This document shows, one piece after another, positions 8,048 to 59,359 of a DNA stretch of 64,000 nucleotides. The stretch's first letter is position 1. Every line of letters begins with the position of its first letter. The position numbers and the translations under genes are program-made. Origin of the DNA: Marsupella aquatica (Eukaryota > Plantae > Marchantiophyta); assembly GCA_973895155.1 (NCBI GenBank), contig OZ316894.1, positions 12,502,828-12,566,827 on the forward strand. Reading direction: 5' to 3'. The notes under the pieces are model-generated. The model worked only from the letters and a program-made list of their open reading frames with translations, had not been told where the DNA came from and made no database searches.

Positions 8048-8377
8048 TGTCACACCATTCTAGGTAGTGTTAGAGTGTATCGTACTATCTAGATCCGTAT
8101 GTTTGGTATGTGTGTTATATGAGCCGATAAGGTTTCGTTAGGTTTGTGTGAGAGGGTACTTCTCTCTTGTGAGGCATTGAAAGGTCATCTTTCAATGTTG
8201 AGCCTTGGAGAGGGAGGAGCTTGAGTGGCTCTGGTGGCCGTGAGCTCCGCTTGTGTAACGTGGATTCCTTGAGTAGTGCAAGGTGCGTTGGCTTGACATA
8301 CGTGTGTGATCGGATCGGTGCGGGATCAATTGGGTATTGTTGACCGGGATCGCTGTGCCGATTGATTGTGGAGATTA
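8048..8377 (+). repeat. Terminal repeat A1 of DNMT element copy 1
   Basis: Direct repeat of 28005-28332 (TGTCACACCATTC...GAGATTA). Confidence 0.92.
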
Positions 8378-10175: not shown

Positions 10176-10329
10176 GGTACAACAACGTGGGTTGGTACAA
10201 CTACGTGGTTAGGTACAACTACGTGATTAGGTACAACTATGTGGTCAGGTACAACTACGTGATTAGGTACAACTATGTGGTTAGGTACAACTACGTGATT
10301 AGGTACAACTATGTGGTTAGGTACAACTA
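10176..10329 (+). repeat. 18-bp tandem array in the copia LTR (also 16287-16440)
   Basis: Nine GGTACAAC cores at 18-bp period (GGTACAACTACGTGATTA / GGTACAACTATGTGGTTA). Confidence 0.92.
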
Positions 10330-16051: not shown

Positions 16052-18693
16052 AGTTTTCTTAAACATTCATTGTAATTACTGATATATGCTCTTCCTCATT
16101 CCTATGTATTAGGCTACGGCTTAGTTCTGGTTTGCTCTAGTTAGAGAGGGAAACCGGTTTGGTTTCTGCCCAGAACTTCCCGCTGAGGGATCATATACAT
16201 TGGCAGTATTACTCTCCCCTAGACCAGAGTCAAGGGGAAGATTGTTGGGTATTTACTCTTACGTCTAGGTTAGGTATGACGTGGTTGGTACAACAACGTG
16301 GGTTGGTACAACTACGTGGTTAGGTACAACTACGTGATTAGGTACAACTATGTGGTCAGGTACAACTACGTGATTAGGTACAACTATGTGGTTAGGTACA
16401 ACTACGTGATTAGGTACAACTATGTGGTTAGGTACAACTAAGTTGCACACTATATCATAAGAGGCATGTGTGCTTGGAGAGGTAGAACCAAGACTCATTG
16501 TTATGGAGCCACTTGAGAGATAGGGAGAGCTTACACTGTGGAGACTCGGTATAGCCGACGGGCTTAGAGTTCAGTAAAGCTCTCTTGTGTGTTCCCGTGG
16601 ACGTAGCCTCAAGGAGGTGAACCACGTATCTCTTGTGTCGACTATTGTGCGTTGGATGGTTCATGGGCTTGCCGTTGCGATCGTCGTCTATGCTCAACAG
16701 TTTACCCCTTTCATGGCATGGAAGGGATTATTTCAGCATTTGGAGGGGCCACCCATAGATGACTACCATGAGTTTTGGAAGGCTCATTTGGTTGAGATTG
16801 AGGCATGAAGGCAGCATTGGTCACCTAATTACGTGTCCATCACCTATGGCACTAGTGCGGCTGCCCAACCCATTGCCACAGCTGCTGCTTCTTCTAGCAG
16901 CACTAGCCAAAGTGGCACACCATCCACCAGCAGCACTCCAGCAGCATCCACCGCTACTCCTACTGGTGTGATTATGATAGGAATTGGAGTTACGCCAGCA
17001 TTTAACCCTGTGGTGGAATTCTTTGAGGTACTGAAGCAGAACTATCAGGGTGTAAGAACTGATAAGTTGAAGGGTCTTCAGGAGTTCCAGCGCAAGACTG
17101 GAGAGAATCTACGTGAGGCATACACTCGTATGCGCAGATTGATCACTGTCACCAAGGGAGTGACAGAGGCTCAGACAGTCCAGTTTTGGTATGCAATTTT
17201 GGACAGAGAATTGCGACGCAGAGTGAGAGATGTCACTCTGCTTAGGGATGCAGATCCCATATTAGCAGTTGTTTTTACCCTTTCTGAGTGCATTGAGCTC
17301 AATATGGTGAATGAGAAGGTGGTGACTTCCGGATTTGCCAAGGAAGCACCAAAGGCTGCATCTACATCCACACCACATCCTACTGCACGAAAGAGCCAGA
17401 GGGAGAAGCCTACTGTACAAGAGTCTACCAGCCAGAGACCTGTGCCCTCTTATGCTGGACAGCAGTCAAGATGTTGGACCTGTGGTGGGGATCATGCACA
17501 GAGATATTTCCCAGATCATAGAGGATCAGGGGGAGCATCAGCGCCTGATCAGCGACAATGTAATCATTGTGAAGCTCCTGGACACACCAAAGATAGGTGT
17601 TTCTCACTCCACCCTGAGTTACAGAGAGGAGGATCCCGTACACATGATCAGGGAAGAGGAGGAGGAGGAGGTAGAGGTGGTGGATGTGGTCGTGGCATGC
17701 CACATGGAGGGAGACAGGGAGGTGACGTTGCCCCTGCTGTAACCATAGATCCAAAGGATGCTAAGATTGCTCAATTGGAGCAACAACTAGCTGCCATGGC
17801 TAGTTCCCAGGTGAGACCTAATTCTGGTGATGGGGCATCTACATCCTATGGACCTTCCACATCCCATGGTCCTTCCACATCTTATGGAGCTAATGGAGAC
17901 CTTGCCACCATGGGATTCATGTGTGGCAGTGCATATATTGATGCATCAGCAGCTTTGACACGTGGGGCAGCTAAAGCTCTTGAGCCCCGAGGAGCAATAG
18001 TGGAGCTAGATCCACAGAGGGGGGATGCACGTCGGCAGACAAAGCTTCCTCAATCTTTTACATTATCAAAGATAGTTCAGATTGCCTCTATGAACCCGGT
18101 TCGGACAAACCCTGGCATGGGTAAGTTGGTAGAATCAGGTAGTGATGCAGCAGGGATGATAGGTACCCTGTTGGGGGTGACTACTGCCATAGTACGCACC
18201 CCATTATTTTCAGCGACAGACATGCTGAACTTGGGAGTTGGTCCGGCATAAGTGTTCAGATTGGCAGCTACACTTTGTGAGGACACTCCAGTGGGTAAGT
18301 GGGTAAGCAGCTTGCAGTGTTGAAGCAGTGAAGACCATGCCACCTACTGCTAGTAGTGAGACATGGCATGCAGTAGCAGCGAGGTTGGTGGATTTACCAG
18401 CACGCCCTACATTTGAGATGACTAGGTTTAAACCTAGTGTTGTGTTATTGGATAATCGGAGTGGTATCTTTCGATTAGTTGGGCCTTCTAGGGCAGTATA
18501 CCAGCCAGAGAGAGTGTTACTAGATATTGGTGCTCAGCCCTTGATGTTGGGTAAGTCTGCCATACGTGGATTGGGCTTGCGTCCAGTGGATTTGGAGGAT
18601 TGTCCCTTTCCCATTCAGACTTCATTGGGGGGACCTACACCTACACAACACATTACCAGGAGACCTCTTGATTTGAGGATTTAGGAAGGTCAT

Positions 18694-21600
18694 TGTGACG
18701 GGGTCCCGCCACGGTAAGTCACCATTAGTGTCACCAGCAAGACACCTGTAAATAAATAAGCCCATAGACCGCGAGTTTTTTTAATGTTCTTTAAGTTTGT
18801 AAAGTTTTTTAAGCATCTCGGGATAGTCGGAGACCCCAACAGTTTTGTCTAGACCCGGGTTAATTATGGGGCAAAACTTGGGGGGTTTAAAATCGTGACC
18901 TTTCGGGAAGATAAGGAAGTCCGGGAAATAAGCATTTTTAATTTTTTTGGTAACACCCCTTCTAAAGCAACACTCAGGCAGGACTGGGGGAGTATGGGGG
19001 GTTTAATTAAACCCCCATTAAATCCTTCCGCGAGTGGGCAGCTAGGGAGCCGGGCCTTAAAGAGTATGAGGGGATCCATAAGAGGCAGCCCTGGAGCTGC
19101 CATGTGGAATCCCCATAAGGGGCAACCCAGGTGGGCGCCACCTGGCGTCTCCATAAGGGCAGGCGGGGCGCATGGCAAGGGGGGCGATTAAGCCCTCTCA
19201 AGGAGCCCCTCTAACGGAGACCTCTTACCGAGCCCCGCGAGTGGGCAACCGGACGCACACAGGAGGAGGCCGAAAAGAAAAAAAAACATAAGGGGAGGTT
19301 TTAATTAAAACCCTCCCTTAAGGAGGGCTTCGTAGGCAAGCCCATAGGGCTGCGTGCCCAAAACCTTAAGGGGCACCGCGAGTACTAAGTAGGGAGGCCG
19401 CGAGTGGGAGAGGGCGAGCACTTGGGGGCCCATAAGGGGCAGCCCTAGAGCCGCCACGTGGAATCCCCAGGCTGAGAGAGGGCAGCCGGGGCGTGGGCAG
19501 CCGGGCCGCGGAGGAGGAGTAAGAGGAGTAAAGGAGGGGGGGTATTAAACCCTCCCGTGAGCCCGCGAGCGGGGGTGGCCGCAAGTGGGAGAGGGCAGTC
19601 GGGGGAGGGGGCAATTAAGCTCCCGCGAGCGAGGCGCAGGGGGCATCGGGGCCTGGGGAGGGCCATTAACGGGGAGCAGCCGGGACCCGCGAGCAAGCTG
19701 GGGCCGTGGCGCCCCAATGGCAACGCGCCCTGCATAGGGCCGCGCACCATTAAACGCCCCGCGAGGCAAGGCAAGAGAGGGCACCGGGGCGCATGGCAAA
19801 AGGAGGTGTCGGAGGCATTTTTTTGCCTTTTTGGTTCTTCTTTCCTCCCTCTTTTGCACGATCCTCTCCTTGCCGAAAGCAAAACTCGAGCTCTCTCCCA
19901 ACACCTTGCCGAAAGCTCTCTCCACATTCTAATTATTTTTGAAGCTCTCTCTCTCATGGTGGATTGGTGGGGCTTGGTGGCGTGATTCTTCCGGGCATGA
20001 GCGGCAGCAGCACGGAGTGGATTCGGAGAGGATTGAGAGAAATAAATTAATCGGGCTACGGGGGCTGTTTCAGGCCAGGGAATTGACATTGCTACGGGTG
20101 ACGGGATTTGGTGATTGAGGATTTGATTTCGAGATGCATGAATGCTAGATCAACCGGAGTTTAGTGTGGCATGCATTCGGAGATACAAGGCTGCTTACCG
20201 TGACTACGTGGAGACTTTGATTGCAAGGGAGAGAGAAGAGAGAGAAGCTACGATGAGCACGGGATTGGCAGCAGGTTCCACACCGGTGGGTAGGAGGATT
20301 TTTCGTCGAATTTATCCCAAGACCTCCGCCAAGGTGATGGAGGATTGTCAGAATATTTTCCAAGCCACCGGGGTTACAGAATTCATGAAGGTGGAGATTA
20401 CCATCCCTCCGGAGAAGAGCTGGGACATTGAGGCCGGGATGGAGTTACGAACGGAGGGAATCTACTTTGAATGTCTCAAACGTGTAGTGCCCCATGTGGA
20501 GTTGGCTAGGCTGCTGTTTCTGGAGAATCAGAAATTCTCATTCACACCTCGGCACATTAGGGGAGAACTCACGTTGAAGATGGTGGCCACTTGGGTGATT
20601 AATCCCACCTCCACCACTGCCATCCCTCTTTCCGCTGTCAAGGATGTTGAGTATAAGGGATTCCCGGCCAAGATTCATCAACGGGTCCTTGGCAACGTGC
20701 AATCCGGGGTGGTGAATGAAGAGCATTTCGTGGTAGCTATGGACATCAAAAACCACCCAGCCCATGTGTACGGATGGTGGTACTACAGGTTGAAGAAGCT
20801 GTTGGCCGCTGATCCCGGGAGTGTGAAACCAGGTGGGGCTGTACATTTGATGGGGTCATTTGTATTGGCCAGGGCATAAGGGTTGATTGGTTCCCCGGGA
20901 CAGGAAGACACGGGATCATCTCTCACCACGGAGATCCAGAGTATTGCCACTACCGTTTTAGGGAAGCTCACGGAGGAATCATCGTCGACTGGTGGGGATG
21001 ACGATAGAGGAGAAGAAAACCAGGATGAGGACTACACGTTGGAGTGGCTTGAATCACTCGTGGGAGATCCGAAAAAGCCCCTGATCCGAAAAAGCCCTTG
21101 CTTCCTTGGCCTTGGTGGTCCACCAAGGCCAAAGAAGCAGAAGAGGTGGGAGCGTTGAGACAAGCATTGGCCAAAGAGAAGCAGAATTCTGGAGAAGTGG
21201 TGGAGTGGAGAAACCAGGTGGGAGCACTACGGAGTCAGGTGGCCGCCTTTGAGACACGAGCAAAGAGGAGTGAGGCCTTGAGTCTGGGGAAACGTAAGAG
21301 CCCCGGCACACCTAGCTCCACACTTTCCCCGGATTTGATCTCCCAGGCTATTGAGATGGTGGTGAAGGAGGTTAGTGGGAAGTATGGGCCCTTGTTGGAT
21401 GGAGCCAAGAAGAGTCAGGAGAAGAGCAAGGGCTTGGAGAAGAAGCTCCGGGAGGTACAGAAATCGTTACGGGAGGCTCAGGTCAGTACGGGGATGCCAC
21501 CCAGGTCTGTCACCCCCGGGACTCCCATGGCCACAGGGCAAGTTCTACCGTTGGAGTTGCGGTTCGGAGAAGAGGCTACCCTATGGAAGGACACCATTGG

Positions 21601-22886
21601 TGAGGGGTACATCAAGGCGTGGTAGGCCTTGGCCACTTTGAGGAAGCAAGGGAGCGGCAGCACGAAGAGTACCCCGGTAAAGAAGAAGAAAAGTGACATG
21701 GCACTCACTCCCGTGAGTGATGAAGAGGAGGCCCACTCACGGGGCACAAGCCAGGGCACCGAGAGTGAAGAAGAGGAGGAGTAGATAGTCGTACGGATGT
21801 GGTTGTACGGCCTCTGGATTTCCAACTTTTTTTTGAGGGGTCACTCACGGGCTTGTTGGAAAGAGCTCGCGGAGCTGATTCCCACAAGAGGCGGCGCTCC
21901 TCAAACGGAGCCAGGATGAGCAAGTTATGGCCCGGCGAAATTGTGTTTTCGCGATACGGAAACGACCATAACTCAGGCGCCCGATGTCCGTTGCAAGGGT
22001 GGCTGAGTAATTCGGGATCAGGAGGAGAAGGGCTATCCAAGGGTGAGCTCAAAAGTACAATTGATAGGGCACCTATTTTCGGCCATTGTGGGGTGCCTTG
22101 CACTTTCGGGGTTCACGGAGTACAGTTGGGGCGTCGTCGAAGGCACCGTTGGCCCCTTGTTTAGGGTTTAGGGTTTTAGCAGCATGTGTGTGCCGCATGC
22201 TTTTTAGTTTAGGGATTTCTTAGTGCAGGGTTTTAGCGGCGCCGCTAGGATAGCCGCCATCGTTGTGACCCCACGAGGGGTGCTTTGGTGTGGTTTTTCG
22301 GTATTTAGGGGGAGAGCCCCGAAGTTGTTTGGGGGGGAACTCAGTCTAGTGTTTGTTTGAGGGAAGTTGTCTAGCAGGCCGAAGAGGGAATTCAGCCAGA
22401 GTAGTGAGGTGACAGCACAGTATTGTCCCAGGGAGGCAGGAGTTGGGCAGACGGCAGGAGGCCGTGTTGTCCTTGCAATGTATACGATTGTTCACCAAAA
22501 GATATGGATTTGGTTGGATTCCTGAATTCTGGGTGTGGTGTTCTCTCTCTTGTTGCACGGTTGTGTTCTTCCCCTAGCATGAATGTTTAGAGAAACTCAT
22601 ATGGTTTGGTCGACCCTGTGAGTGGGAGAGTGGTGACAGCACTTTGCCAAAGACTAGGAGGAGTAGGAATAGGACAGTCCACGGGACTTGATCAAAAGCG
22701 GAGTGCACGTATAGTCGGTAGACTTGATCAAAAAATACATTTCCAGGAGCGGAAACGAATCTACTCATCCTTAGTAAGAAGTTACTCTGTATAGCATCCC
22801 TCCACGTCCCCGTCATACGATACAAACGATTATTAGTAGAAACTCAACGGTATTTGATGTGTTAATCGTTTGATAAGCAGGTGACA
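18694..22886 (+). mobile_element. Solo LTR (~4.2 kb) of family A inserted in the DNMT element
   Basis: TG...CA termini and a 5-bp TSD GTCAT (18689-18693 / 22887-22891). The empty site GGAAGGTCATACCACAG is seen in copy 2 at ~53151-53167. Homologous to 852-5395. Confidence 0.92.
20142..21784 (+). pseudogene. LTR-encoded accessory protein, second copy, disrupted
   Basis: Homologous to 2394-4321. Stops at 20879 and 21625, and an internal deletion near 21090. Confidence 0.75.
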
Positions 22887-24565
22887 GTCATACCACAGAT
22901 AGCTCACAGATACAGGCGCGAGCTATACTGACTAAGGCAGAGTCATATGATGTGTTGGTGGGATGTACAATGCTCTACCCCATGGGATTTATTCTTGATT
23001 TTTGGGAGGAATCAGTGTCATATAGACCTGATTGGCAGTCAGGAGATGCTCGATTGAGCAAATTGCCAGTGAGATTTAGTGGACCTGTGAGAGGCCCTAA
23101 ATCCACACCATTGTCTTTGGCAGCATTCAATGGTGTAATTGCTGGACCTGATGATTTGATTGAGGGTATTGCGCATGCAGCAGATGTTCCACCATTGGAG
23201 GAGTCTCATGAGGAGCACATCATGCAAGGATTACCTGTTGGCAGTGTTGTGCCACCAGTGTGGGGCACTGCACAAGCCTTGCCACAGACAGCAACACAAT
23301 TGGTACATGATGCATGGCGTCATGCTTTTACACCATAGTCAGGAGCAGAGCAGTCTCTTGCAGATGGACCTGTGACTCTTTCACCATTGGATACCACTCC
23401 TATTGCTTGGCAATATCCACTAGAGGGTATTTGTTTGTTAGATCTTTTTGGTGGGATTAGCACTGGATTGGCTGTTGTTCTTCAGGCAGGAATTCCTGTG
23501 CGTTGTTATTTGTACGTAGAGACAGATGAGACAGCACAGAGGGTCTCATTACGACATGTGGCTATGTTGGTGGATAGATATCCACAGTTGCTGCTAGTGG
23601 ATGCTGTTCATGGTTATCAACATGCACTACCTACTGATATTTCATTGTTGGGGGCGGATCATCTGCATTGGGTTGGCCCCATTGATTTGGTGATTGTTGG
23701 TTGGCCATGTCAGGGCCAATCTAGAGCTGGCGCTGGGCATGGACTTCATGATCCACGCTCTGCATTGTTTTGGGAGATGTTACGGGTGCTGCGGCATCTC
23801 CAGCTACATCAGACACAGTCTCCAACATACATTTTGGAGAATGTGCCATTGTTAGGTGATGATCGTAGTCGGATTGTTACCAGTGTTCACCAGGTGAGGT
23901 CTTGGATTGGACCTGTTGTGTTATTGGATGTTGCACGTGTGGGTTCTCGTGCACATCATCCACGCTTGTAGTGGACTAATTTGATCCCATGTGAGGTGTT
24001 GAAGCGTGCATTTGACAGCATTCCACGCTCACTAGCCTTAGTGGTGGATGATATTTTGGATCCAGGGCGTCGTGCACAGGGTATGACCCAACCTGATAGA
24101 CCTCCATTGGCAGTGGTCAATGCAGTTGGGCGCCCACGTTGTGCATTCCCCACTCTTGTAAGCCACTCTACTTCATATGCATTTAGAGCAGGTGGCCCTG
24201 GACTTGTGTGGGACACAGCTCTCCAGCAGTTAGTGGAGCCTACTGTTGATGAGAGAGAGCGTGCTATGGGATTTTTGACTAGCACCACTGTAGTTGCCTC
24301 TGTGTCAGAGGGTTTGGGGCGCCAGGTTCTTGGTCAAGCAATGGATCTGAATTGTTTGACTTGGATTATCAGCTTGGGAGTAGCTGAACAGTTGCGGATA
24401 CGCTCTGCTGGAATTACTGATTGTCCCTTGGTGAGCTTGCGATCCATTGAGACAGTACTGACCACAACTGGGGGCGAGCAGACGGTCCATGGACCTATGG
24501 CAGGATTGGCCAAGGCTGGACAGATTGTTGAGCAGGAAGGGACTGCTCAATCTACTGCTAAATAG

Positions 24566-27500
24566 CAATCATCGACTATCTCTTCTACCCTACAAAGAGA
24601 TATTAGGGATTTGGTGGAGAGTTGGGAACCACAGCTTGGCCCTAAGTTGACAGGGGAGGAGAGACGTTGCTTGCATCGATTCCTGAAGAGTTACTTGAAT
24701 TGTTTTGCATTTAGCATGAAGAATTTGGGGATATTAAAGGGTCCTGGTATTCAGATTGAATTGGCTAGTGTTGCGCCAATCTTTCGTAGGCCATACCGTT
24801 ACAGTGACATGGAGAGAGCTCTGATTCAAAGTAGAACTCAAGATTTTTTGGAGGCTGGATTGGTGGATATTTCATATGGGGAGTATGCATCTGCCACAGT
24901 GATGCCAGCCAAGAAGGATGTGCATGGCAATTACACAGATAGTTGCATGTGTGGTGATTACAGACCCATTAATCGCCAGACAAAATCTGATAGATATGCC
25001 ATGCCCACACCTGAGGAGATCTTTGATGCTATGGGGCATGCAAAGGTTTTCAGTTCATTGGATCTGAGGGCAGGATACCATCAGCTTCCAATTAGGCATG
25101 CTGACAGGTCCAAGACAACATTCTGGGGGATTGATTCTTATGGCAAAGATCGTTTGTATCAGTGGTTATTCTTACCATTTGGGTTGAAGAATGCACCAGC
25201 TGAGTTCCAGAGAATCATGGATTGAATCCTTGCAGGTTTGGATTTTGTCAGATGTTATATTGATGATATTTTGGTCTATTCTTCTACTATGGAAGAACAT
25301 CAGCAGCACTTGCAGATTGTGTCACTTGGAGAGATTGAGAGCACATGGGTTGAAGCTCCATCCTAGCAAGTGTAAGTTCTTCCAAGACCAGATTGAGTAT
25401 TTGGGCCACACTATATACCCAGGGGGATTGGGTGTACAACGGACTAAAGTGGAGGCCATTACACAGATTCCTTGTCCTACTGATGTGAGTAGAGTTTGTG
25501 CATTCTTGGGATTGGCGAGCTACTACAGGAGGTATGTTAAAGGATTTAGCCAGCTTGCTAAACCTTTGACCATACTCACTAAGTTGGATCAGGAATGGAT
25601 TTGGGGTGATGACCAGGAGCATGCCTTTCAGGAGTTGAAGCAAAGGTTGGCATCATCCCTATTTTGAGAAGACCCATTTCTGGCAGACCATTTCAGCTAC
25701 ACACTAATTGGAGTGGAGTAGGACTTGGAGTAGTGCTGACTCAGAAAGATGATGAAGGGCATGAGTTTGTTGTGGCATATGCCAGTAGATCAAATAATTC
25801 AGCAGAGGCTAAGTATAGCTCTTATGAGGAAGAGTGTTTGGCAGCAGTGTGAGCTGTGGCACACTTCCGCTATTACTTGTTTGGTAATCCTTTCACTTTG
25901 ATCACTGATCATCAGCCTCTCAAGTGGTTAATGGAGTCTGACAAGCTTACGGGGAAGCTTGCAAGATGGGCATTGTTGTTACAGGAATATGATTTCCAGG
26001 TTGTACATAGACCTGGAAAGGTGAACTTGGATGTAGATGGGTTGAGCCGCAACCCATGTACCAGTCAGCAGGATGAGACTGGAGCCAGATGGCATGATGA
26101 GTCAGATAAGGAGATGATGCCAGGATGGCATGCATCTGCCTTTCTTTGTTGGGTGCCAGCATACAGTGGATTTGTGGACTCTACCTCATTGGATGGAGTG
26201 GATGATGAGTCTTCAGATGTGGATGTTGGTGAGATAACTTATGGACAGCAAGATATTCACAATGATGTGAGAGTGTTGGAATATTTGCGCAGTGGTTCTA
26301 TTGTTGGCAGTGTTGATGCCAAGGAGCGTCACAGGGTTCTGCAAAGAGCCAAGAGATTTCGATGGGAAGGAAACCATCTTCTGAGAGTATTGCATGATGG
26401 TAGGGTGTTGGTGGTACCAAAACCATCACAACGAGTACATTTGGTGCGACATGCGCACGAGGAGTTGGGTCACTTTGGTGTGAAGCGCACTTATAGCTTG
26501 CTGCAGACCCAGTATTGGTGGCGTGGTATGCACACTCATGTCCAGCAGTTGATAGCTAAGTGTGTGGTATGTGATAGAGTGAGAGCATCATTTAATGCTC
26601 CCACTCCCCAGTTGCACCCGTTGCCGATCATGGGTTTGGGATATTGTTGGAATTTGGATTTTGCTGGTCCATTACCTCTTACCCAACGTCATAATTGATA
26701 TGTTTTGGTCATGGTGGAGCACTTCTCCAAGTGGATTGAGCTAGTGGCGTTGCCCGATAAAGCTAGCGGAGGAGTTGCTGCTACATTTTTGGATCATGTA
26801 CTCAGTCATTTTGGAGCACCAGCTGAGGTGTTGACTGATCAGGGAACTGAGTTCCGTGGAGAGTTTGAGAGTTTGTATGAACAAGCTCTGATTGATCATC
26901 GTACTACCTCTCGTGATCATCTTGAGCAGATGGATTAGCTGAGAGAGTTGTGCAAACTGTGAAGAGAGGATTGCGTAAGGGCTTGCAGGTTGGTCATCTG
27001 GGAGATTGGGATCTCCAGCTACCTTGGTTAGCTATGGGCTACCGTTTCAGTCGGCCCTAAACCCTAAACCCTAAACATCACTTGCATCCTTCTCACCTTA
27101 CTTTTTGCTCTATGGTAGAGAGCCAGATTTGCCAGCAGCTATTCGTCGTGATGCTGCACTAGTTGTGAACTTGGATGATCCTGATGTTTGGGTCAAGGTG
27201 TGTTCAGAGAGAGCACAGGTATTTCAGAGAGTGATGCCCATGGCTTTTGACAACCTTGTCATTGCCCAACATCGTGATACTTTGAGGTATGCCACTATTC
27301 GTGGAGGAGGTACCGTGCAAGCATTCGACGATTTCATCCTGGTGATTATGTTTATTTGCAGCAGACAGCACCCACAACACTTGATGTGACCGCAGGCCGG
27401 ACAATCTTACGTGTGCGTGAAGTATTGCCTTCTAGTGTCCTGATGTTGGAGGGAGGCGATGGTATGGTTTGGAAGGATCATGTGCGCAACTGTGCACCAT

Positions 27501-27702
27501 GTCACCTTCCATTGATGATATAGTAGATCCAAGCTTGGCACATGTTCGTGCTGGCTTGAAATGTATGTTGTGTGGATTTGCTCAGGGAACAGCTACTATG
27601 TTGATTTGTGATAAGTGTTCTAAAGGATGGCACATGTCATGTTTGACACCACCATTGCAAGTGATTACTAGTGGATCATGGTTGTGTCCTCAGTGTCGGT
27701 GA
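24566..27702 (+). pseudogene. pol: RT-RNaseH-integrase-PHD of DNMT element copy 1
   Basis: CGDYRPIN, LDLRAGYHQ, PFGLKNAP, YIDD, TDHQPL, HEELGH..C..C and DQGTEF. C-terminal PHD finger at 27562-27702. Multiple stops and frameshifts. Confidence 0.92.
27055..27075 (-). repeat. Interstitial telomeric repeat (CCCTAAA)3
   Basis: Three perfect plant telomere units, absent from the homologous site in copy 2 (TCGGCAAGCATCA, ~57284). Confidence 0.9.
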
Positions 27703-27865
27703 AGCCGACTAGTTATCATTTGTGTTCTCTTGGCAGAGGTAGGTGATCGATGGGGCTCACTTGCACCCGGCCTCCTGATCTTCACACCTGAAAAAGTGTA
27801 TATCAACCTTGTAGAATTCATGGCTAGCTAGAGTTAGGGGACCTTACTCCCAGCTAGGGGGGCGA

Positions 27866-28469
27866 TTGTGGATTTTGGGCATGTGTGGACATGAGTTCCA
27901 CTTGTATTCCATTCTCTTGTGTTTGTGATGTGGCAGTGTGACTATGTCTGGATGTATGTGATAAGCGATGTATGTTGTGTAGCGATGTGTATGCGCACGA
28001 CAGCTGTCACACCATTCTAGGTAGTGTTAGAGTGTATCGTACTATCTAGATCCGTATGTTTGGTATGTGTGCTATATGAGCCGATAAGGTTCCGTTAGGT
28101 TTGTGTGAGAGGGTACTTCTCTCTTGTGAGGCATTGAAAGGTCATCTTTCAATGTTGAGCCTTGGAGAGGGAGGAACTTGAGTGGCTATGGTGGCCGTGA
28201 GCTCCGCTTGTGTAACGTGGATTCCTTGAGTAATGCAAGGTGCGTTGGCTTGACATACGTGTGTGATCGGATCGGTGCGGGATCGATGGGGTATTGTTGA
28301 CCGGGATCGTTGTGCCGATTGTATTGAGATTATTGTGGGTTTTGGACATGTGTGGACATGAGTTCCACTTGTATTCCATTTTCTTGTGTTTGTGATGTGG
28401 CAGTGTGACTATGTCTGGATGTATGTGACAAGCGATGTATTTTGTGTAGCGATGTGTATGCGCACGACA
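27866..28469 (+). repeat. Right-end repeats B1-A2-B2 of copy 1
   Basis: PPT AGGGGGG at 27856-27862. Then B1 27866-28002, spacer GC, A2 28005-28332 and B2 28333-28469. Confidence 0.92.
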
Positions 28470-47985: not shown

Positions 47986-50841
47986 TTTATTATTTAGTTT
48001 TACAATGTGAAGCCAAATGGGTTTTAATTATGTACATTTCTATTGATTGATTTTTTCAAACTTGCAAACAATTAAAAAATACAAGCATTTTGATATAAAA
48101 CACTGATATATCTTTGACAAATATCAAAATGGTAACTTTGTTTACTAAATGACATCTCTTCTTTTGTATTTTGGTCTTTTTACGTTTAATATTTACGGCA
48201 TGGCGCCCCAAAAATTACGTTGCTTTTGCCACAAACAGGTATGTGCACGTTTGTTATTGTTAAAAGTAGGATCATTCCTGTTTGTGGCTAGTTGTGATGA
48301 TGTGGCGCAACCTCATGGCAGAGAATTTGCAAGAGACCCCTAATGGAGGTCCGTAAATATAGCATTTTCTGTGCCAAAAGAAATCAGATTGTACAATGGT
48401 CATCTTACAGAATACAGCATTTTATGTGCCCAAAAAATTCAGAAAGCAAAGCTAGAAGGGGGGTATCTAAAAGCAAGCCACCACCAAATTAAAGTGGAGA
48501 GGAAAGAATACTTCTTTGTCCTCCTCATCAATGTACTTGCAAGTATAGTCTCTGCCCTACTCATTGTACTTGCAAGTTCACTAAGTGGTCCAATTCTTGG
48601 CCATTGTCTTCTTTGTATTGCCCATTGCCTAATGTACTCCCCATGTCCATGCAATGCAAGGTGGGAGTACTTGCCCCTTCCCTTGGTACTCCCATGAAAT
48701 GAATAGGTTCTATGAAAACAAATTTACTTGGCAAAATTCAATATGTATTTGATGAAACAGCAAGGGATTAGGGTACCAAAGTACTCTTGACCGGGGTGAC
48801 AGAATTTTGGGATACATATATGAGGGCACCACCACATATGACAACATCCTTTGCGCAATGTCATCTTTTATGCATGGGCATCTCTTTCAGTACATATCTT
48901 TTTCATGAATGACATGTTTTACTTAACAACATGTGTTGTGCAACAATGTATGTTACTTAACTACATTTTTTGTGTACTAATGATATATTTTACTATTTAA
49001 CTATATCTTTTGCACAATAACATTTTTGATAAGGTCTGTCTTGCATGTGCAAGAGTCCTGAAAAATGCGACCCCTAGCAACCCACAGATGTCAGGAAAAA
49101 GTGTGACCCACGATCTAAGCACAATCAAGAACAGCTTTGTCACACCATTCTGAGTAGTGTAGTAGTATATCGTGCTATTAGAGTATGTACGTTTGGTATG
49201 AGTGCTATTGGAGCCGATAAGGTTCTGTCAGGTTTGTGTGAGAGGGTACTTCTCACTTGTGAGGCATTGAAAGGTCATCTTTCAATGTTGAGCCTTGGAG
49301 AGAGAGGAGCTTGAGTGTGGCTATGGTGGCTGTGAGCTCCGCTTGTGTAACGTGGATTCCTTGAGTAGTGCAAGGTGCGTTGGCTTGACATACGTGTGTG
49401 ATCGGATCGGTGCGGGATCGATGGGGTATTGTTGACCGAGATCGTTGTGCCGATTGTATGGAGATTACATTGAAAGATCACATTCGAAATCTGTTGTACG
49501 GACTGTGCGGAGAGAAGTTTGATTGATTGAGTTGTCGACGGTTCGTGGTAGCTCAGATCGTGTGTTGTTATCGAACAGATTGTTGGTATCTTGACCTGTA
49601 TCGTTGTTGTCCAATCGGCCTGCTTCCCGATCGATGTACAGATCTGTGATTGGTGACAGGTTTTGAGTTGGAGGTCGATTGATGATTCGTGGAGGAAAGC
49701 GAATGTTGAGTAGATGTTGGACAGTGGAAGTCGATCCGTGAGGCTTCAGATCCGATTGCCGGCTACTGTGAGGCTTCAGATCTGATTGTCGGCTACTATG
49801 GGGCTTCAGATCTGATTGCCGGCTATTGTTGGACGATGTTGGCAAGGCGCAGATGAAGCGACGGCTCTTTTCCTGAAGGAACGGAGCTGCCAATGCCCCG
49901 TGCGATGGTATCATCGTTTCAGTGAAAGAAACGAGGGTCAAGGGTGTTGAATCAAGCTGCTGCCAATTCTGTGGAAGGGCTGCGTTTTTCATGAAGGAAA
50001 ACGACGGTTTTCGGGAGCTTTTCGTGAAGGAAGTAGTCATTTTTGGGGTTAGGTGTGAGGCGCACGAGGTCACCCATCCCGAAAGTGCTCGCGCGAGGCG
50101 ACGCGTGAGGTCACCCATCCCGAAAGTGCTCCCAACCGCGAGCGCGAAGTCACCCGTCGCGAGCGCAGGTGTGCAGGCAGGCGTGAGGTCGAGGTCACCC
50201 ATCCCGGGGCTATTCCGGGCCGTGAGCGCGAGGGGAGGCACAAGGTCGAGCGCGAGGAGGTCACCCATCCCGGGGCTATTCCCGGCCGCGAGAGCTTAAC
50301 TGGCAAGTTCTCATCCCACCTTGTGTACACACAAGCTTTGACAACTTGTTGTTTAGATTCAAGCGCCAGGGGGCTTTATATACTTCCCGGTTTGTTTAGA
50401 GGCCTATTCTAGGCCAAATCAGAGGCTGTTTGAGGGTTTTTGATACTTCTGAGTCCATCTAGACTCACAGATTGAACCAATTTTGCCTTGGTTCTCATCT
50501 ACAACATTGGAGTGCCATTGTGAAGCCTATTATGAAGGCTCTTCCTTGAACCTTATGCACATTGTCATATTGATTTGCATTTGCTTTTGTGTGGAGAGTT
50601 GAATGGTATCCATTCTTGTTTCTGGATCCTCTTCACACATGTTTCCTGTTTATGCGCCATGTTAGTTTCGTGTGGGCGCTTGATTCCATAGGAGTGATCC
50701 GGGTTTGCAACTGGACATTCTAGTGTGCTGTGTATTTCTCTCTTGGTGATGTTGGAGTGATGTCCAACACACCATGGTGAGTGCTTGTGGTGCTGACAGG
50801 GATAGATTGCCCTTAGGGTTAGCACATAGATTAGGTTAGGG

Positions 50842-53800
50842 TTGGTCACCACGAATTCTTCTGGTGCTGCTGGATTACCCGATGGACGACGGACCGGTTT
50901 CACTCGGAGTGGGGCACAGTTTCGGCCAGCGGCATTGGTAGCAGTCAGCAGTGCAGCTTCAGACAGTGATTCTGATGAGGACTCAGTGACCAGTTCTCCT
51001 CATCATCAGGTGGTTGCACCTTTGTTGTGGGATATGGACGAGATGTACGGGGCTACAAAGGGCCCACGACGATACTCTGGTGCAGTTGGCACAATTGATC
51101 TGGATGACTTCATCCAGGAGTTTGATACGTGGTGCGATATGCAGACATTGCATAATGTCACGTTGTTTACCCCTTTCATGGCATGGAAGGGATTATTCCA
51201 GCATTTGGAGGGGCCACCCATGGATGACTACCATGAGTTTCGGAAGGCTCATTTGGTTGAGATTGAGGCATGGAGGCAGCATTGGTCGCCTAATTACGTG
51301 TCCATCACCTATGGCACTAGTGCGGCTGCCCAACCAATTGCCACAGCTGCTGCTTCTTCTAGCAGCACTAGCCAGAGTGGCACACCATCCACCAGCAGCA
51401 CTCCAGTAGCATCCACCACTACTCCTGCCGGTGTGATTGTGACAGGAACTAGAGTTGCGCCAGCATTTAATCCTGTGGTGGAATTCTTTGAGGTACTGAA
51501 GCAGAACTATCAGGGTGTGAGAACTGATAAGTTGAAGGGTCTTCAGGAGTTCCAACGCAAGACTGGAGAAAGCCTACGTGAGGCATACACACGTATGCGC
51601 AAATTGATCACTGTCACCAAGGGAGTGACAGAGGCTCAGGCAGTCCAGTTTTGGTATGCAATTCTGGACAGAGAATTGCGACGCAGAGTGAGAGATGTCA
51701 CTCTGCTTAGGGATGCAGATCCCACATTAGCAGTTGTTTTCACCCTTTCTGAGCGCATTGAGCTCAATATGGTGAATGAGAAGGTGGTGACTTTTGGATT
51801 TGCCAAGGAAGCACCAAAGGCTGCATCTACATCCACACCACAGCCTACTGCACGGAAGAGCCAGAGGGAGAAGCCTACTGCACGAGAGTCTACCAGCCAG
51901 AGACCTGTGCCCTCTTATGCTGGACAGCAGTCAGGATGTTGGACCTGTGGTGGGGATCATGCACAGAGATATTTCCCAGATCATAGAGGATCAGGGGGAG
52001 CATCAGCGCCTGATCAGCGATAGTGTGATCACTGTGGAGCTCCTGGACACACCAAGGATAGGTGTTTCTCACTCCACCCTGAGTTACGGAGAGGAGGATC
52101 CCGTACACATGATCAGGGAAGAGGAGGAGGAGGTAGAGGTGGTGGACGTGGTCGTGGCATGCCACATGCAAGGAGACAGGGAGGTGACGCTGCCCCTGCT
52201 GTAACCATAGATCCAAAGGATGCTAAGATTGCTCAATTGGAGCAACAACTAGCTGCCATGGCTAGTTCCCAGGTGAGACCTAATTCTGGTGATGGGGCAT
52301 CTACATCCTATGGACCTTCCACATCCCATGGTCCTTCCACATCTTATGGAGCTGATGGAGACCTTGCCACCATGGGATTCATGTGTGGCACTGCACATAT
52401 TGATGCATCAGCAGCTTTGACACGTGGGGCAGCCAAAGCTCTTGAGCCCCGAGGAGCAGTAGTGGAGTTAGATCCACAAAGGGGGGATGCACGTCGGCAG
52501 ACAAAGCTTCCTCAGTCTTTTACATTGTCAGAGACAGTTCAGACTGCCTCTATGAACCCGGTTCGGACAAACCCTGATGTGGGTAAGTTGGCAGAATCAG
52601 GTAGTGATGCAGCAGGGATGACAGGTACCTTGCTGGGGGCGGCTACTGCCATAGTACGCACCCCATTATTTTTAGCGACAGACATGCTGAACTTGGGAGT
52701 TGGTCCTGCAGAAGTGTTTAGATTGGCAGCTACACTCTGTGAGGACACTCCAGTGGTTGCTTCCCATGCAGAAGCAACTTGCAGTGTTGATGCAGTGAAG
52801 ACCATGCCACCTACTGCTACTAGTGAGACATGGCATGCAGCAGCAACGAGGTTGGTGGATTTACCAGCACGCCCTGCATTTGAGAGGACTAGGTTTAAAC
52901 CTAGTGTTGTGTCATTGGATAATCAGAGTGGTATCTTCCGATTAGTTGGGCCTTCTGGAGCAGTATACCAGCCAAAGAGAGTGTTACTGGATACTGGTGC
53001 TCAGCCCTTGATGTTGGGGAAGTCTGCCATACGTGGATTGGGATTGCGTCCAGAGAATTTGGAGGATTGTCCCTTTCCCATTCAGACTTCATTGGGGAGA
53101 CCTACACCTACACAGCATATCACCAGGAGATCACTTGATTTGAGGATTCAGGAAGGTCATACCACAGATAGCTCACAGATACAGGCGCGAGCTATTCTGA
53201 CTAAGGCAGAGTCATATGATGTGTTGGTGGGATGTACAGTACTCTACCCCATGGGATTTATTCTTGATTTTTGGGAGGAATCAGTGTCATATAGACCTGA
53301 TTGGCAGTCAGGAGATGCTCGATTGAGCAAATTGCCAGTGAGATTTAGTGGACCTATGGGAGGCCCTAAATCCACACCATTGTCTTTGGCAGCATTCAGT
53401 GGTGTAATTGTTGGACCTAATGATTTGATTGAGGGTAATGCGCATGCAGCCGATGTTCCACCATTGGAGGAGTCTCATGAGGAGCACATCATGCGAGGAT
53501 TACCTGTTGGCAGTGTTGTGCCACTAGTGTGGGGCATTGCACAAGCCTTGCCACAGGCAACAGCACGATTGGTACATGATGCATGGCGTCATGCTTTTAC
53601 ACCACAGTCAGGAGCAGAGCAGTCTCTTGTAGATGGACCTGTGACTCTTTCACCATTGGATACCACTCCTATTGCTTGGCAGTATCCACCGGAGGGTATT
53701 TGTTTGTTGGATCTTTTTGGTGGGATTAGCACTGGATTGGCTGCTGTTCTTCAGGCAGAAATTCCTGTGCGTCGTTATTTGTATGTGGAGATAGATGAGA

Positions 53801-54831
53801 CAACACGGAGGGTCTCATTGCGACATGTGGCTATGTTGGTGGATAGATATCCACAGTTGCTGCCAGTGGATGCTGTTCATGGTTATCAGCATGCACTACC
53901 TGCTGATATTTCATTGTTGGGGGCGGATCATCTACATCGTGTTGGCCCCATTGATTTGGTGATTGCTGGTTGGCCATGTCAGGGCCAATCTAGAGCTGGC
54001 ATTGGGCATGGACTTCATGATCCACGCTCTGCATTGTTTTGGGAGATGTTACGGGTGCTGCGTCACCTCCAGCTACATCAGACACAGTCTCCAACATACA
54101 TTTTGGAGAATGTGCCATTGTTAGGTGATGATCGTAGTCAGATTGTTGCCAGTGTTCACCAAGTGAGGTCTTGGATTGGACCTGCTGTGTTATTGGATGC
54201 TGCACGTGTGGGTTCTCGTGCACATCGTCCACGCTTATGGTGGACTAATTTGATCCCATGTGAGGTGCTGAAGCGCGCATTTGACAGCATTCCACGCTCA
54301 CCAGCCTTAGTGGTGGATGATATTTTGGATCCAGGGCGTCGTGCACAGGGTGTGACCCAACCTGATAGACCTCCATTGGCAATGGTCAATGCAGTTGGGT
54401 GCCCACGTTGTGCATTACCCACTCTTGTAAGCCACTCTGCTTCATATGCATTCAGAGCAGGTGGCCCTGGACTTGTATGGGACACAGCTCTCCAGCAGTT
54501 AGTGGAGCCTACTGCTGATGAGAGAGAGCGTGCTATGGGATTTTTGACTGGCACCACTGCAGTTGCCTCTGTGTTAGAGGGTTTGTGGCGCCAGGTTCTT
54601 GGTCAAGCAATGGATTTGAATTGTTTGACTTGGATTATCAGCTTGGGAGTAGCTGAACAGTTGCGGATGCGCTCTGCCAGAATTACTGATTGTCCCTTGG
54701 TGAGCTTGCGGTCCATTGAGACAGTATTGACCACAGTTGGGGGCGAGCAGACAGTCCATGGACCTATGACAGGATTGGCGGTTGGACAGATTGTTGAGCA
54801 GGAAGGGACTGCTCAATCTATTGCTAAATAG
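50842..54831 (+). pseudogene. Gag-protease-C5 cytosine methyltransferase ORF (one premature TAG at 52021)
   Basis: Single frame with gag (LDDFIQEFDTW, knuckle CDHCGAPGHTKDRC), protease VLLDTGAQ and the DNMT domain at ~53698-54633. The start codon is uncertain (first ATG at 51034). Confidence 0.9.
53698..54633 (+). other. C5 DNA cytosine methyltransferase domain
   Basis: Motifs in canonical order: I LLDLFGGISTG, II YVEIDE, IV DLVIAGWPCQG, VI YILENV, VIII AHRPRLWWTN, IX ERERAMGF, X RQVLGQAM. Confidence 0.92.
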
Positions 54832-57800
54832 CAATCATCGGCTATCTCTTCTACCCTACAAAGAGATATTAGGGATTTGGTGGAGAGTTGGGAACCACAG
54901 CTTGGCCCTAAGTTAACAGGGGAGGAGAGACGTCGCATGCATCGATTCCTGAAGAGTTATTGGAATTGTTTTGCATTCAGCATGAAGGATTTAGGGACAT
55001 TGAAGGGCCCTGGTATTCAGATTGAATTGGCTAGTGATGCGCCAATCTTTCGTAGACCATACCGTTATAGTGACATGGAGAGAGCTCTGATTCAAAGCAG
55101 AACTCAAGATTTGTTGGAGGCTGGATTGGTGGAGATTTCATATGGGGAGTATGCATCTACCACAGTGATGCCAGCCAAGAAGGATGTGCATGGCAATTAC
55201 ACAGATAGGCGCATGTGTGGTGATTACAGACCTATTAATCGCCAGACAAAATCTGATCGATATGCCATGCCCACACCTGAGGAGATCTTTGATGCTGTGG
55301 GGCATGCAAAGGTTTTCAGTTCATTGGATCTGAGGGCAGGATACCATCAGCTTCCAATTAGGCATGCTGACAGGTCCAAGACAGCATTCTGGGGGATTGA
55401 TTCTTATGGCAAAGATCGTTTGTATCAATGGTTATTCTTACCATTTGGGTTGAAGAATGCACCAGCTGAGTTCCAGAGAGTCATGGATCGAATCCTTGCA
55501 GGTTTGGATTTTGTCAGATGTTATATTGATGATATTTTGGTCTATTCTTCTACTGTGGAAGAACATCAGCAGCACTTGCAGACTGTGTTGGAGAGATTGA
55601 GAGCACATGGGTTGAAGCTCCATCCTAGCAAGTGTAAGTTCTTCCAAGACCAGATTGAGTATTTGGGCCACACCATATACCCAGGGGGATTGGGTGTACA
55701 GTAGACTAAAGTGGAGGCCATTACACAGATTCCTTGTCCTACTGATGTGAGTAGAGTTCGTGCATTCTTGGGATTGGCGAGCTACTACAGGAGGTATGTT
55801 AAAGGATTTAGCCAGCTTGCTAAACCTTTGACCATACTCACTAAGTTGGATCAGGAATGGATTTGGGGTGATGACCAGGAGCATCCCCTATTTTGAGAAG
55901 ACCCATTTCAAGCAGACCATTTCAGCTACACACTGATTGGAGTGGAGTAGGACTTGGAGCAGTGCTGACTCAGAAGGATGATGAGGGGAATGAGTTTGTT
56001 GTGGCTTATGCCAGTAGATCAAACAATTCAACAGAGGCTAAGTATAGCTCTTATGAGGGAGAGTGTTTGGCAGCAGTGTGGGTTGTTGCACACTTTCGTT
56101 GCTACTTGTTTGGTAACCCCTTCACCTTGATCATTGATCATCAGCCTCTTAAGTGGTTAATGGAGTCTGACAAGCTTACAGGGAAGCTTGCACGATGGGC
56201 ATTGTTGTTACAGGAGTATGATTTCCAGGTGGTGCATAGGCCTGGAAAAGTGAACTTGGATGCAGATGAATTAAGCCGCAATCCATGTACCAGTCAGCAG
56301 GATGAGATTGGAGCCAGATGGCATGATGAGTCAAATAAGGAGATGGTGCCAGGATGGCATGCATCTGCCTTTCTTTGTTGGGTGCCAGCATACAGTGGAT
56401 CTGTGGACTCTACTTCATTGGATGGAGTGGGTGATGAGTCTTCAGATGTGGATGTTGGTGAGGTAACTTCTGGACAACAAGATATTCACAATGATGTGAG
56501 AGTGTTGGAATATCTGCGCAGTGGTTCTATTGTTGGCAGTGTTGATGCCAAGGAACGTGACAGGGTTCTACAGAGAGCCAAGAGATTTCGATGGGAGGGA
56601 AACCATCTTTTGAGAGTATTGCATGATGGTAGGATGTTGGTGGTACCAAAACCATCACAACGAGTACATTTGGTGCGACATGCGCACGAGGAGTTGGGTC
56701 ACTTTGGTGTGAAGCGCACTTACAGCTTGCTGCAGACACAATATTGGTGGCGTGGTATGCACACTCATGTCCAACAGTTGATAGCTAAGTGTGTGGTATG
56801 TGATAGAGTGAGAGCATCATTTAATGCTCCCACTCCCCAGTTGCACCCATTGCCGATCATGGGTTTGGGATATCGTTGGAGTTTGGATTTTGCTGGTCCA
56901 TTACCTCTTACCCAACGTCATAATCGGTATGTTTTGGTCATGGTGGAGCACTTCTCCAAGTGGATTGAGCTAGTGGCGTTGCCAGATAAAGCCAGTGGAG
57001 GAGTTGCTGCTACATTTTTGGATCGTGTACTCAGTCATTTTGGAGCACCAGCTGAGGTGTTGACTGATCAAGGAACTGAGTTCCGTGGAGAGTTTGAGAG
57101 TTTGTGTGAACAAGCTCTGATTGATCATTGTACTACCTCTCGTGATCATCCTGAGGCAGATGGATTAGCTGAGAGAGTTGTGCAAACTGTGAAGAGAGGA
57201 TTGCGTAAGTATGGCTTGCAGGTTGGTCATCTGGGAGATTGGGATCTCCAGCTACCTTGGTTAGCTATGGGCTACCGTTTCAGTCGGCAAGCATCACTTG
57301 CATCCTTCTCACCCTACTTTTTGCTCTATGGTAGAGAGCCAGATTTGCCAGCAACTATTCGTCGTCATGCTGCACCAGTTGTGAACTTGGATGATCCTGA
57401 TGTTTGGGTCAAGGTGTGTTCAGAGAGAGCACGGGTATTTCAGAGAGTGATGCCCATGGCTTTTGACAACCTTGCCATTGCCCAACATCGTGATACTTTG
57501 AGGTATGCCACTATTCGTGGAGGAGGTTACCGTGCAAGCATTCGACGATTTCATCCTGGTGATTATGTTTATTTGCAGCAGACAGCACCCACGACACTTG
57601 ATGTGACCGCAGGCCGGACAATCTTACGTGTGCGTGAAGTGTTGCCTTCTGGTGTCCTGATGTTGGAGGGACGCGATGGTATGGTTTGGAAGGATCATGT
57701 GCGCAACTGTGCACCATGTCACCTTCCCAACATTGATGGTACAGTAGATCCAAGCTTGGCACATGTTCGTGCTGGCTTGAAATGTATGTTGTGTGGATCT

Positions 57801-57923
57801 GCTCAGGGAGCAGCTACTATGTTGATTTGTGATAAGTGTTCTAGAGGATGACACATGTCATGTTTGACACCACCATTGCAGGTGATTCCTAGTGGATCAT
57901 GGTTGTGTCCTCAGTGTCGGTGA
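54832..57923 (+). pseudogene. pol: RT-RNaseH-DDE integrase-PHD finger of copy 2
   Basis: YIDDIL, HTDWS, HEELGH..CVVC, DFAG, DQGTEF and GLAER. PHD at 57783-57923. Lesions are a TAG at 55702, a deletion near 55885 and a TGA at 57849. Confidence 0.93.
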
Positions 57924-59359
57924 AGCCGACTAGTTATCATTTGTGTTCTCTTGGCAGAGGTAGGTGATCGATGGGGCTCACTTGCACCCGGCCTCCTGAT
58001 CTTCACACCTAAAAAGGTGTATATCAACCTTGTAGAACTCATGGCTAGCTAGAGTTAGGGGACCTTACTCCCAGCTAGGGGGGCGATTGTGGGTTTTGGA
58101 CATGTGTGGACATGAGTTCCACTTGTATTCCATTCTCTTGTATTTGTGATGTGGCAGTGTGACTATGTCTGGATGTATGTGACAAGCGATGTATGTTGTG
58201 TAGCGATATGTATGCGCACGACAATTGTCACACCATTCTGAGTAGTGTAGTAGTATATCGTGCTATTAGAATATGTACGTTTGGTATGAGTGCTATTGGA
58301 GCCGATAAGGTTCTGTCAGGTTTGTGTGAGAGGGTACTTCTCACTTGTGAGGCATTGAAAGGTCATCTTTCAATGTTGAGCCTTGGAGAGAGAGGAGCTT
58401 GAGTGTGGCTATGGTGGCTGTGAGCTCCGCTTGTGTAACATGGATTCCTTGAGTAGTGCAAGGTGCGTTGGCTTGACATACGTGTGTGATCGGATCGGTG
58501 CGGGATCGATGGGGTATTGTTGACCGAGATCGTTGTGCCGATTGTATGGAGATTATTGTGGGTTTTGGACATGTGTGGACATGAGTTCCACTTGTATTTC
58601 ATTCTCTTGTATTTGTGATGTGGCAGTGTGACTATGTCTGGATGTATGTGACAAGCGATGTATGTTGTGTAGCGATATGTATGCGCACGACAGCTTCAGT
58701 GTGAAGTGCTTATTCAGTCGGATCTACTGCCACTTTGTTTTATCCAAAGTTCAAAGTTTGGGGCCTCAAGGCCGGAAAATTTCCCGCCCTTGTCCTTGCA
58801 TATCCTCCAAAGACACCATCAGGACCGACGGCTTGTTGCTTCGTTTAGAGATGTCATGGGTTCATTTGAGGACCGAAAATCAAAGGACCTTGCACATGCA
58901 AGATGGCCCTTAATAACAGATTTGGGCAATAACTCTTTTGCTTAACACATCTTTTATACAACATCTTTTACCCTATGTGCATTGCATGGTGATAAATCCA
59001 GTTTCACTACATAAATATTTGTTTGGGAAGAGAAGCTGTGGAGTAGACTCTCTAGAAACTCATCATCAAAGGGTGTGAAATGAAATGAGAGGTCTTTGTT
59101 CTCGCGAGCCAATTATTGACGTTATTAAGGAAGGACGGGCACTAGGCTAGGCTCTCTAATCAGGACAGTGTCACCCGTTTACACTCAGTGTCAACTGTCA
59201 AAGACAAAAACAGCAGATCAACAAGAGCAGAACTTGTGCGAGAGACGCATGTCGAGGGTTTTGAGACGTCACAGTTTTGATTGGAATCGTTGTGCCTTTA
59301 CCTCAGTCTCTTGCCCTGTCTTGATTGATGGCTTGAAGTCTCGCAGGGTTTAAGCAGCG

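Follow-up and report, generated by a model that had tools for sequence, protein, structure and literature searches.

Two copies of a long terminal repeat (LTR) retrotransposon were analysed in a 64,000-nucleotide stretch of the liverwort Marsupella aquatica (contig OZ316894.1, positions 12,502,828 to 12,566,827), hereafter called the window. The element is gypsy by its proteins and not by its ends. The site at which its integrase acts very probably lies inside the repeats, at a short palindrome, and the joint between the two ends of its complementary DNA (cDNA) is, with the same high probability, remade in each cycle. We lean slightly towards the explanation that the cDNA ends are joined into a circle and that the DDE integrase then cuts the internal palindrome and not the cDNA ends.

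The copy e2 (49138..58692, forward strand, as are all its features below) was arranged in the order A1, interior, polypurine tract (PPT), B1, AT, A2 and B2, with the outer ends TGTC...GACA. It was flanked by the 4-bp target-site duplication (TSD) GCTT (49134..49137 on the left, 58693-58696 on the right). A1 (330 bp, 49138..49467), presumably the 3′ part of the LTR, was the sole repeat at the left end. The right end comprised the PPT, AGGGGGG followed by CG (58077..58085), B1 (137 bp, 58087..58223), presumably the 5′ part of the LTR, A2 (58226..58555) and B2 (58556..58692), which stopped at GACA on the host junction. The palindrome GACA-AT-TGTC (58220..58229; GACA-GC-TGTC in the family form), the putative integrase attachment site, lay between B1 and A2, and the A2/B2 joint (58549..58562) was the point where the primer-defined end met the PPT-defined end. 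The copy e1 (8048..28469, forward strand) had the same layout, the TSD ATAG and two nested insertions; its parts were A1 (8048-8377), B1 (27866-28002), the spacer GC within the palindrome (27999-28008), A2 (28005-28332) and B2 (28333-28469). B sequence was looked for upstream of A1 in both copies, and none was found. A preliminary description of the window had reported A alone on the left and PPT-B-NN-A-B on the right of both copies, with 4-bp TSDs, and these coordinates, motifs and duplications were verified. The interiors of e1 and e2 were ~94% identical and their flanks and TSDs were unlike, which indicated two separate insertions; the segmental duplication that the same description had named as a possible objection did not apply. 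A1/A2 and B1/B2 were 99.4 and 99.3% identical in e2, and 97.0 and 96.4% in e1, respectively; between the copies, A was 92-93% and B 96.4% identical. In the window copies, B1 and B2 carried common copy-specific changes at positions 56 and 122, so one template per cycle served both.

Relatives of the element were taken from metagenomes as the best 80 of 495 confirmed loci, and distinct counts are those after removal of re-assembled duplicates. The 3′ ends of the 80 loci fell mainly into two classes: 29 (24 distinct) ended in B-A-B and 30 (25 distinct) in B alone followed by unrelated DNA. Two others had B plus part of A, one (L005) was apparently collapsed, and 18 were uninformative. A conventional B-A followed by host DNA, which the preliminary description had regarded as the arrangement that would contradict it if most family members had it at both ends, was seen at none of the 49 distinct 3′ ends and none of the 10 distinct 5′ ends. 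Each of these ten left ends consisted of A alone; the one in L027 was ambiguous, as its TGTC is preceded by GC and its TSD does not match. Gypsy elements characteristically have two complete terminal LTRs and cDNA ends at which the integrase acts; this arrangement was absent from these loci. The integrase regions of B-only and B-A-B copies contained 5.6 and 5.7 stops (p 0.70, a weak test on selected, old copies). The idea that the B-only copies are an older, recombined class was unsupported by this weak comparison. No relative was found in IMG/VR. An additional A-only left end in L054 (9597-9888, reverse strand) was not selected by integrase and stands outside the counts. The locus L005 (8541-9038) represented a fourth family, with a stop-free integrase and DNMT region, its own 16-nt self-primer and an unchanged palindrome; its contig order of PPT, B, A, primer site and interior may reflect the collapse of a repeat or a circle with one LTR.

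The inserted ends coincided with the halves of the palindrome. In 48 distinct metagenome loci the right end was GACA or differed from it by one change, and the left end was TGTC in 9 of 10 distinct loci, the remaining one being degenerate. The 12 two-ended copies (10 loci and the two window copies) had seven perfect 4-bp TSDs, two with one mismatch, one degenerate and two unmatched. No target-site sequence preference was evident in the 48 right flanks. For the family of the window itself, two studies supplied four runs whose contigs were placed on 57760-58555. In runs X2, X3 and X4, 18, 27 and 36 contigs, respectively, departed from the element right after 58223, and the sequence beyond was mixed (agreement 0.37-0.38). 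The contig joints of this family ran from the end of A back to the start of B, small variants included. Among the 24 of 517 loose ends that were listed, those before B terminated in letters like the end of A and not in random flanks, and none lay at 58226 or concerned the start of A. The metagenome ends, the contigs and the junctions described next all bear out the proposal of the preliminary description that insertion takes place at the internal palindrome.

The palindrome GACA-GC-TGTC was kept in four families whose integrase identity fell to ~50%. It was the main sequence common to their repeats, and families 1 and 2 also shared the 3′ part of B. Its spacer was 2 bp long in all 26 distinct junctions (GC 11, AC 7, GT 4, AT 3, TC 1), and in 25 of them it was GC or a C-to-T or G-to-A decay product of GC. 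This indicated that the palindrome was copied and not rejoined, and the spacer is probably an inherited GC that decays like a methylated CHG site. The preliminary description had written the spacer as NN; the length of 2 bp holds, and the sequence is not free. Each window copy's spacer matches the first two TSD bases of the other copy, which prompted the idea of a host-derived spacer; this idea was rejected on the 25 GC-derived spacers.

The cDNA ends appear to lie elsewhere. The primer-binding site, the 12 nt following A1 (49467..49478), was exactly complementary to A positions 140-151 (49277..49288), which are the predicted self-primer and transcript start; it was of the self-priming type, with no complement to a tRNA CCA end. 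When 1200 interior positions were scanned as a null, the longest complement was 10 nt. In the four families the complement was 12, 17, 15 and 16 nt long, and its sequence was unlike in each. Upstream of the self-primer, TATA-like boxes were located at a distance of ~20-30 nt in families 3 and 4 as well as in L016; none was evident in the window's family. In older copies the complement had decayed, and in L067 none was found. The predicted RNA of L013 that corresponds to this region folded with the primer paired to the primer site (z -3.3). At the level of sequence, the primer site complements the 5′ RNA of the element itself. With the PPT placed in front of B1, LTRs of the form B-GC-A would be expected from ordinary reverse transcription, as the preliminary description had held in taking B+A as the true LTR, and the self-primer and PPT would put the cDNA ends at the A/B joint. 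An A-B order of the LTR was also considered and rejected, since the primer site, the PPT and the position of the TATA-like box delimit B-A. No terminal motif common to the four families was found at the presumed cDNA ends; the internal palindrome is what they share. A hairpin in the window's family (49265-49287) lies just upstream of the self-primer, and its other arm is a 9-nt copy of the primer site. Transcripts that started further upstream would sequester the primer, and the choice of the start site is a possible control.

The length variation was concentrated at the A/B joint; the spacer length of the palindrome was constant, and the B1/B2 alignments mostly had 0-1 gaps. In family 3, 15 of 18 distinct loci retained 1, 3, 4 or 5 nt of the primer site at the joint, and the others had AT, AAG (one additional PPT base) or a deletion. 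The joint of L003 contained filler templated from nearby sequence, and in L052 about three quarters of A2 was deleted at a 3-nt microhomology. The identity of B1 and B2 was higher within copies than between them (93.2 vs 91.4-91.7%; 92.1 vs 87.2-88.1%). The pattern at the joint suggested that the primer-defined and PPT-defined ends are united by end-joining in each cycle, in agreement with the end-to-end joined cDNA ends of the preliminary description. Its exact junction, GAGATTA/TTGTGG, is one of two readings: the primer end does join the PPT end, and GAGATT/ATTGTGG is equally possible because the 12-nt primer complement includes the A before CATTG. Its statement that circularisation precedes insertion was not supported in that form, as genome data cannot order the joining and the insertion.

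The polyprotein of the element had the order Gag, protease, C5 methyltransferase, reverse transcriptase, RNase H, integrase and PHD finger. In e2, the gag and aspartic protease region (50830..53655) was interrupted by a stop at 52021. A Dnmt3-like C5 cytosine methyltransferase domain (53656..54723, bounds approximate) occupied the interval before the reverse transcriptase (54832..55704; stops at 54829 and 55702), and a frame change preceded the region of the RNase H, the integrase (HHCC finger, D-D(34)E core) and the C-terminal PHD finger (55875..57923; stop at 57849 within the PHD finger). Pfam matched the reverse transcriptase, the RNase H, the integrase zinc finger and the rve core, while the gag (E 0.043) and protease (E 0.008) matches were short of the cut-off; the gypsy order from Gag to integrase was thus present, with its first two members weakly matched. 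The HHCC zinc finger and DDE core, the primer site after the 5′ repeat, the PPT before the 3′ repeat and the short TSD were also those of a gypsy element, and the top solved-structure matches of the integrase were Ty3-G Pol (E 2.9e-22) and the integrase of prototype foamy virus (PFV). No recombinase family was matched by Pfam in any of the 37 stop-to-stop frames of at least 70 aa over e2, so the preliminary description was right in reporting a DDE integrase and no tyrosine recombinase. No chromodomain was matched, though a C-terminal one typifies the Tf1/Tcn1 chromoviruses; the relatives carried a C-terminal PHD finger (PF00628), and uninterrupted single-frame polyproteins of 2200-2360 aa were found among them. 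The methyltransferase domain is predicted from PF00145 (E 2.7e-10) and from DNMT3A as its top solved-structure match (E 2.7e-10); strings that look like motifs were visible in its translation. Loci of families 2, 3 and 4 carried the domain as well. Named protein relatives came from Riccia, Calypogeia, Marchantia, Sphagnum, Klebsormidium and Closterium. The preliminary description had not included the self-priming site, the Dnmt3-like and PHD domains or the common A...B form.

Two further observations concern these proteins. The D(34)E spacing of the integrase core (window 57066-57173) was found in all 110 proteins in which the motif was located (210 examined, P0001-P0210), and it is one residue shorter than that of Ty3-G, PFV and the copia element of the window (35). 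Numerous Marchantia polymorpha gene models (P0138, P0139, P0141-P0149) were 61-72% identical to the methyltransferase domain of the element, and some annotated Marchantia C5 methyltransferases may therefore be retrotransposon fragments.

Here, the following cycle is proposed. The transcript would begin in A (position 140), and its first ~12 nt would pair with the primer site by folding back and so serve as the primer of reverse transcription, as in Tf1. If standard LTR reverse transcription is assumed, the self-primer and the PPT would yield a linear cDNA, B-GC-A...B-GC-A, whose ends have no conserved integrase motif. These ends would be united in each cycle by imprecise end-joining, to which the joint variants point. 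The integrase would then nick GACA-GC-TGTC after CA on both strands, giving two 3′-CA ends with 2-nt 5′ overhangs, and insert them with a 4-bp stagger, whereby GC would be lost. In vitro, the LTR-LTR palindrome of PFV is cut in this manner by its integrase: each strand is nicked after CA, 2-nt 5′ overhangs are left and 2 bp are lost (PMC1180852). The palindrome of the 5′ LTR, the first to become double-stranded, would be bound and cut, giving A...B-GC-A-B, the only form in which R would still have a 3′ copy when the next cycle begins. One-LTR circles might be cut likewise to give the A...B form, equally common and likely a dead end.

Several points weigh against this cycle. From a symmetric two-LTR circle, the reciprocal A-B-A...B form and A...B-A-B would be expected in equal numbers. 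The reciprocal form was seen at none of 12 left ends, one of them ambiguous, compared with 26 B-A-B ends among 51 right ends (Fisher p 0.0008), counts that include both window copies, which were chosen beforehand for their form; p was 0.009 when L027 was taken as reciprocal, and 0.016 for the six fully visible two-LTR copies, none of which was reciprocal. The plain two-LTR circle of the preliminary description, cut at either palindrome, is therefore unsupported as it stands; the cut must favour the 5′ LTR copy, and this preference is an added assumption. The minimum-energy fold of the window RNA 49277-49490 showed no pairing between primer and primer site (z -1.7), and L027 and L051 had no matching TSD. 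The end classes were derived from short-read assemblies. In Drosophila HMS-Beagle, one-LTR circles are dominant and two-LTR circles rare (bioRxiv 2022.09.25.509424), so efficient joining would be a requirement of an obligate two-LTR route. Circles, transcripts and cleavage were not among the observations. The fuller proposal is that in an old Ty3/gypsy clade, from Klebsormidium to liverworts and mosses, the integrase site shifted to a fixed internal palindrome, and that integration became obligately circular through end-joining, with the D(34)E integrase opening the 5′-LTR palindrome selectively. On this whole we are evenly divided.

The internal attachment site and the remade joint are common to the circle route and to two other explanations. 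One of these, which we consider rather unlikely although it deserves weight, is that the palindrome is cut on linear cDNA, that the halves are inserted, and that the host repairs the leftover break afterwards. End-joining would then give A...B-A-B, and annealing of the flanking direct repeats would give A...B; after a cut in the 3′ LTR, annealing of the longer A repeats would lead to A...B as well. The final structure and the joint variants would be the same as those from a circle, and this explanation could account, with no preference for the 5′ LTR, for the absence of reciprocal copies and for the ratio of 24:25 between B-A-B and B-only ends. The equal stop counts of the two classes also look as if B-only copies arose at insertion, but they suit one-LTR circles no less. 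However, this explanation requires a double-strand break in each insertion and an annealing that removes the reciprocal form almost completely, and the joints are mostly a few bases from exact, which resembles the ligation of nearby ends more than the repair of a chromosomal break.

It is more doubtful still that the reverse transcriptase itself makes the joint through a jump from the start of the LTR to its end and then copies as far as the palindrome, so that the integrase processes a linear or rolling product with an extra B. Such a directional jump could account for A...B-A-B alone being seen, and retained primer-site bases and microhomology are compatible with jumps of this kind. However, a precise internal cut would still be needed at both ends, and neither a second primer nor a stop signal was seen at the palindrome. 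Templated filler is more typical of host polymerase-theta joining, and the joint of L003 fits that better. In a last set of explanations the layout does not reflect a mode of transposition: duplication may have spread a rearranged ancestor, the assembly may be at fault, or a tyrosine recombinase may act in trans as in PAT/Ngaro elements. The layout is indeed that of PAT/Ngaro (PMC4157794), and metagenome contigs may collapse repeats, as L005 appears to have done. Against this stand dozens of distinct flanks with TSDs across three families, the equal age of A1/A2 and B1/B2 within a copy, and the Klebsormidium genome, for which the same layout was reported (PMC5890265). The element has no tyrosine recombinase. 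TG...CA ends with 4-bp TSDs are the signature of a DDE integrase, and the element carries both. This set is already largely refuted, and we regard it as very improbable. The circle route remains the one that we prefer.

Other features were observed in the window. One nested insertion in e1, a young Ty1/copia element (10132-16699) in the gag region, had LTRs 99.8% identical and the 5-bp TSD GTTTA; related LTR fragments were located near 29251-29479 and 46424-46644. The other (18694-22886; 4193 bp) had TGTGAC...GTGACA ends, the 5-bp TSD GTCAT and no LTR pair. It contained an open reading frame (20142-20879) that had no Pfam match and resembled another at 2394-3818, and a diverged relative of the insertion was found at ~852-5395. 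This insertion may be either an unclassified element or a solo LTR of very great length. The copy e1 was itself inserted into another gypsy element (5923-8047 and 28474 onward), at a point that separates the gag of this host element (Ty3 capsid, zinc knuckle) from its protease. On the reverse strand, a TIFY domain at 43606-44160 (PF06200, E 1.9e-8) pointed to a host JAZ/TIFY-type gene between e1 and e2.

Whether the DNA circles of retroelements serve as integration precursors is an old question. If the circle route is correct, the insertions would record it, because the cut site and the end-join differ in place and both persist in the genome. End-joining, a dead end for other LTR elements, would become a required step under obligate circle integration. 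A DDE integrase would have converged on the layout and logic of tyrosine-recombinase retroelements, and its 10-bp substrate would be testable in vitro and a possible tool for the insertion of circular DNA. Search tools that rely on paired LTRs are expected to miss this clade or to misplace its bounds.

Parts of this arrangement are known from other systems. In PAT, Toc, Kangaroo, Ngaro and Viper elements, the split direct repeats follow the same A1...B1-A2-B2 order, and the methyltransferase of PAT/Ngaro elements is Dam-like (PMC4157794). The window element differs in its C5 methyltransferase, in its TG...CA ends with 4-bp TSDs and in the DDE integrase that takes the place of a tyrosine recombinase. 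A primer site that complements the element's own 5′ repeat and not a tRNA is shared with Tf1, Tj1, sushi and plant Tcn1, self-priming from the 5′ RNA having been described for Tf1 and Tj1 (PMC4600332) and predicted for Tcn1 (PMC6317226). These elements have ordinary paired LTRs and mostly a chromodomain, in contrast to the PHD finger and permuted ends found here.

The mode of cutting is closest to that of PFV, whose DDE integrase nicks a CA-NN-TG palindrome after CA on both strands with the loss of 2 bp, and for which a circle has been proposed as the precursor; the PFV palindrome is created when the cDNA ends are joined, and normal full-length LTRs are found in the provirus (PMC1180852). Here, the palindrome is inherited and internal, lying 113-176 bp away from the end of the cDNA, and the integrase would not act on the joint. 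DDE transposases of the IS3/IS30 type also insert a circle through abutted ends with a short spacer, in a cycle that involves DNA only; their junction is made by the transposase, with the spacer taken from flanking DNA. The spacer of the window element is inherited instead, and its cycle passes through RNA.

The nearest known relative is KnitGypsy-Dnmt3 of the alga Klebsormidium nitens, in which DIRS-like repeats of the order A-coding-B-A-B occur with Gypsy domains (de Mendoza et al., 2018; PMC5890265, legends of Fig. 4c and 1e). The layout is thus in print once, though with no mechanism; the preliminary description had known of no such report for a gypsy element. Termini, TSDs, priming and the integration mechanism were not found in the article text, where "circular" and "target site" do not occur; Supplementary Figs 13-14 may show the termini. 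The literature searched, which lies outside subscription journals and Repbase, held no further paper on KnitGypsy and no mechanism for this layout in a gypsy element. The window element shares with KnitGypsy-Dnmt3 the Gypsy domains, the Dnmt3-like domain within Pol and the A-coding-B-A-B repeats (PMC5890265). The K. nitens protein P0192, presumably from one of the copies of de Mendoza et al. (2018), contains DNMT, reverse transcriptase, RNase H and integrase, and was 51% identical to the element over RNase H and integrase, 41% over the reverse transcriptase and 47% over the DNMT region. On this pairwise identity, the element resembles and probably belongs with the KnitGypsy-Dnmt3 family. It differs in that its clade was seen in liverworts and mosses and carries a C-terminal PHD finger, and it extends the Dnmt3-carrying retrotransposons to land plants.

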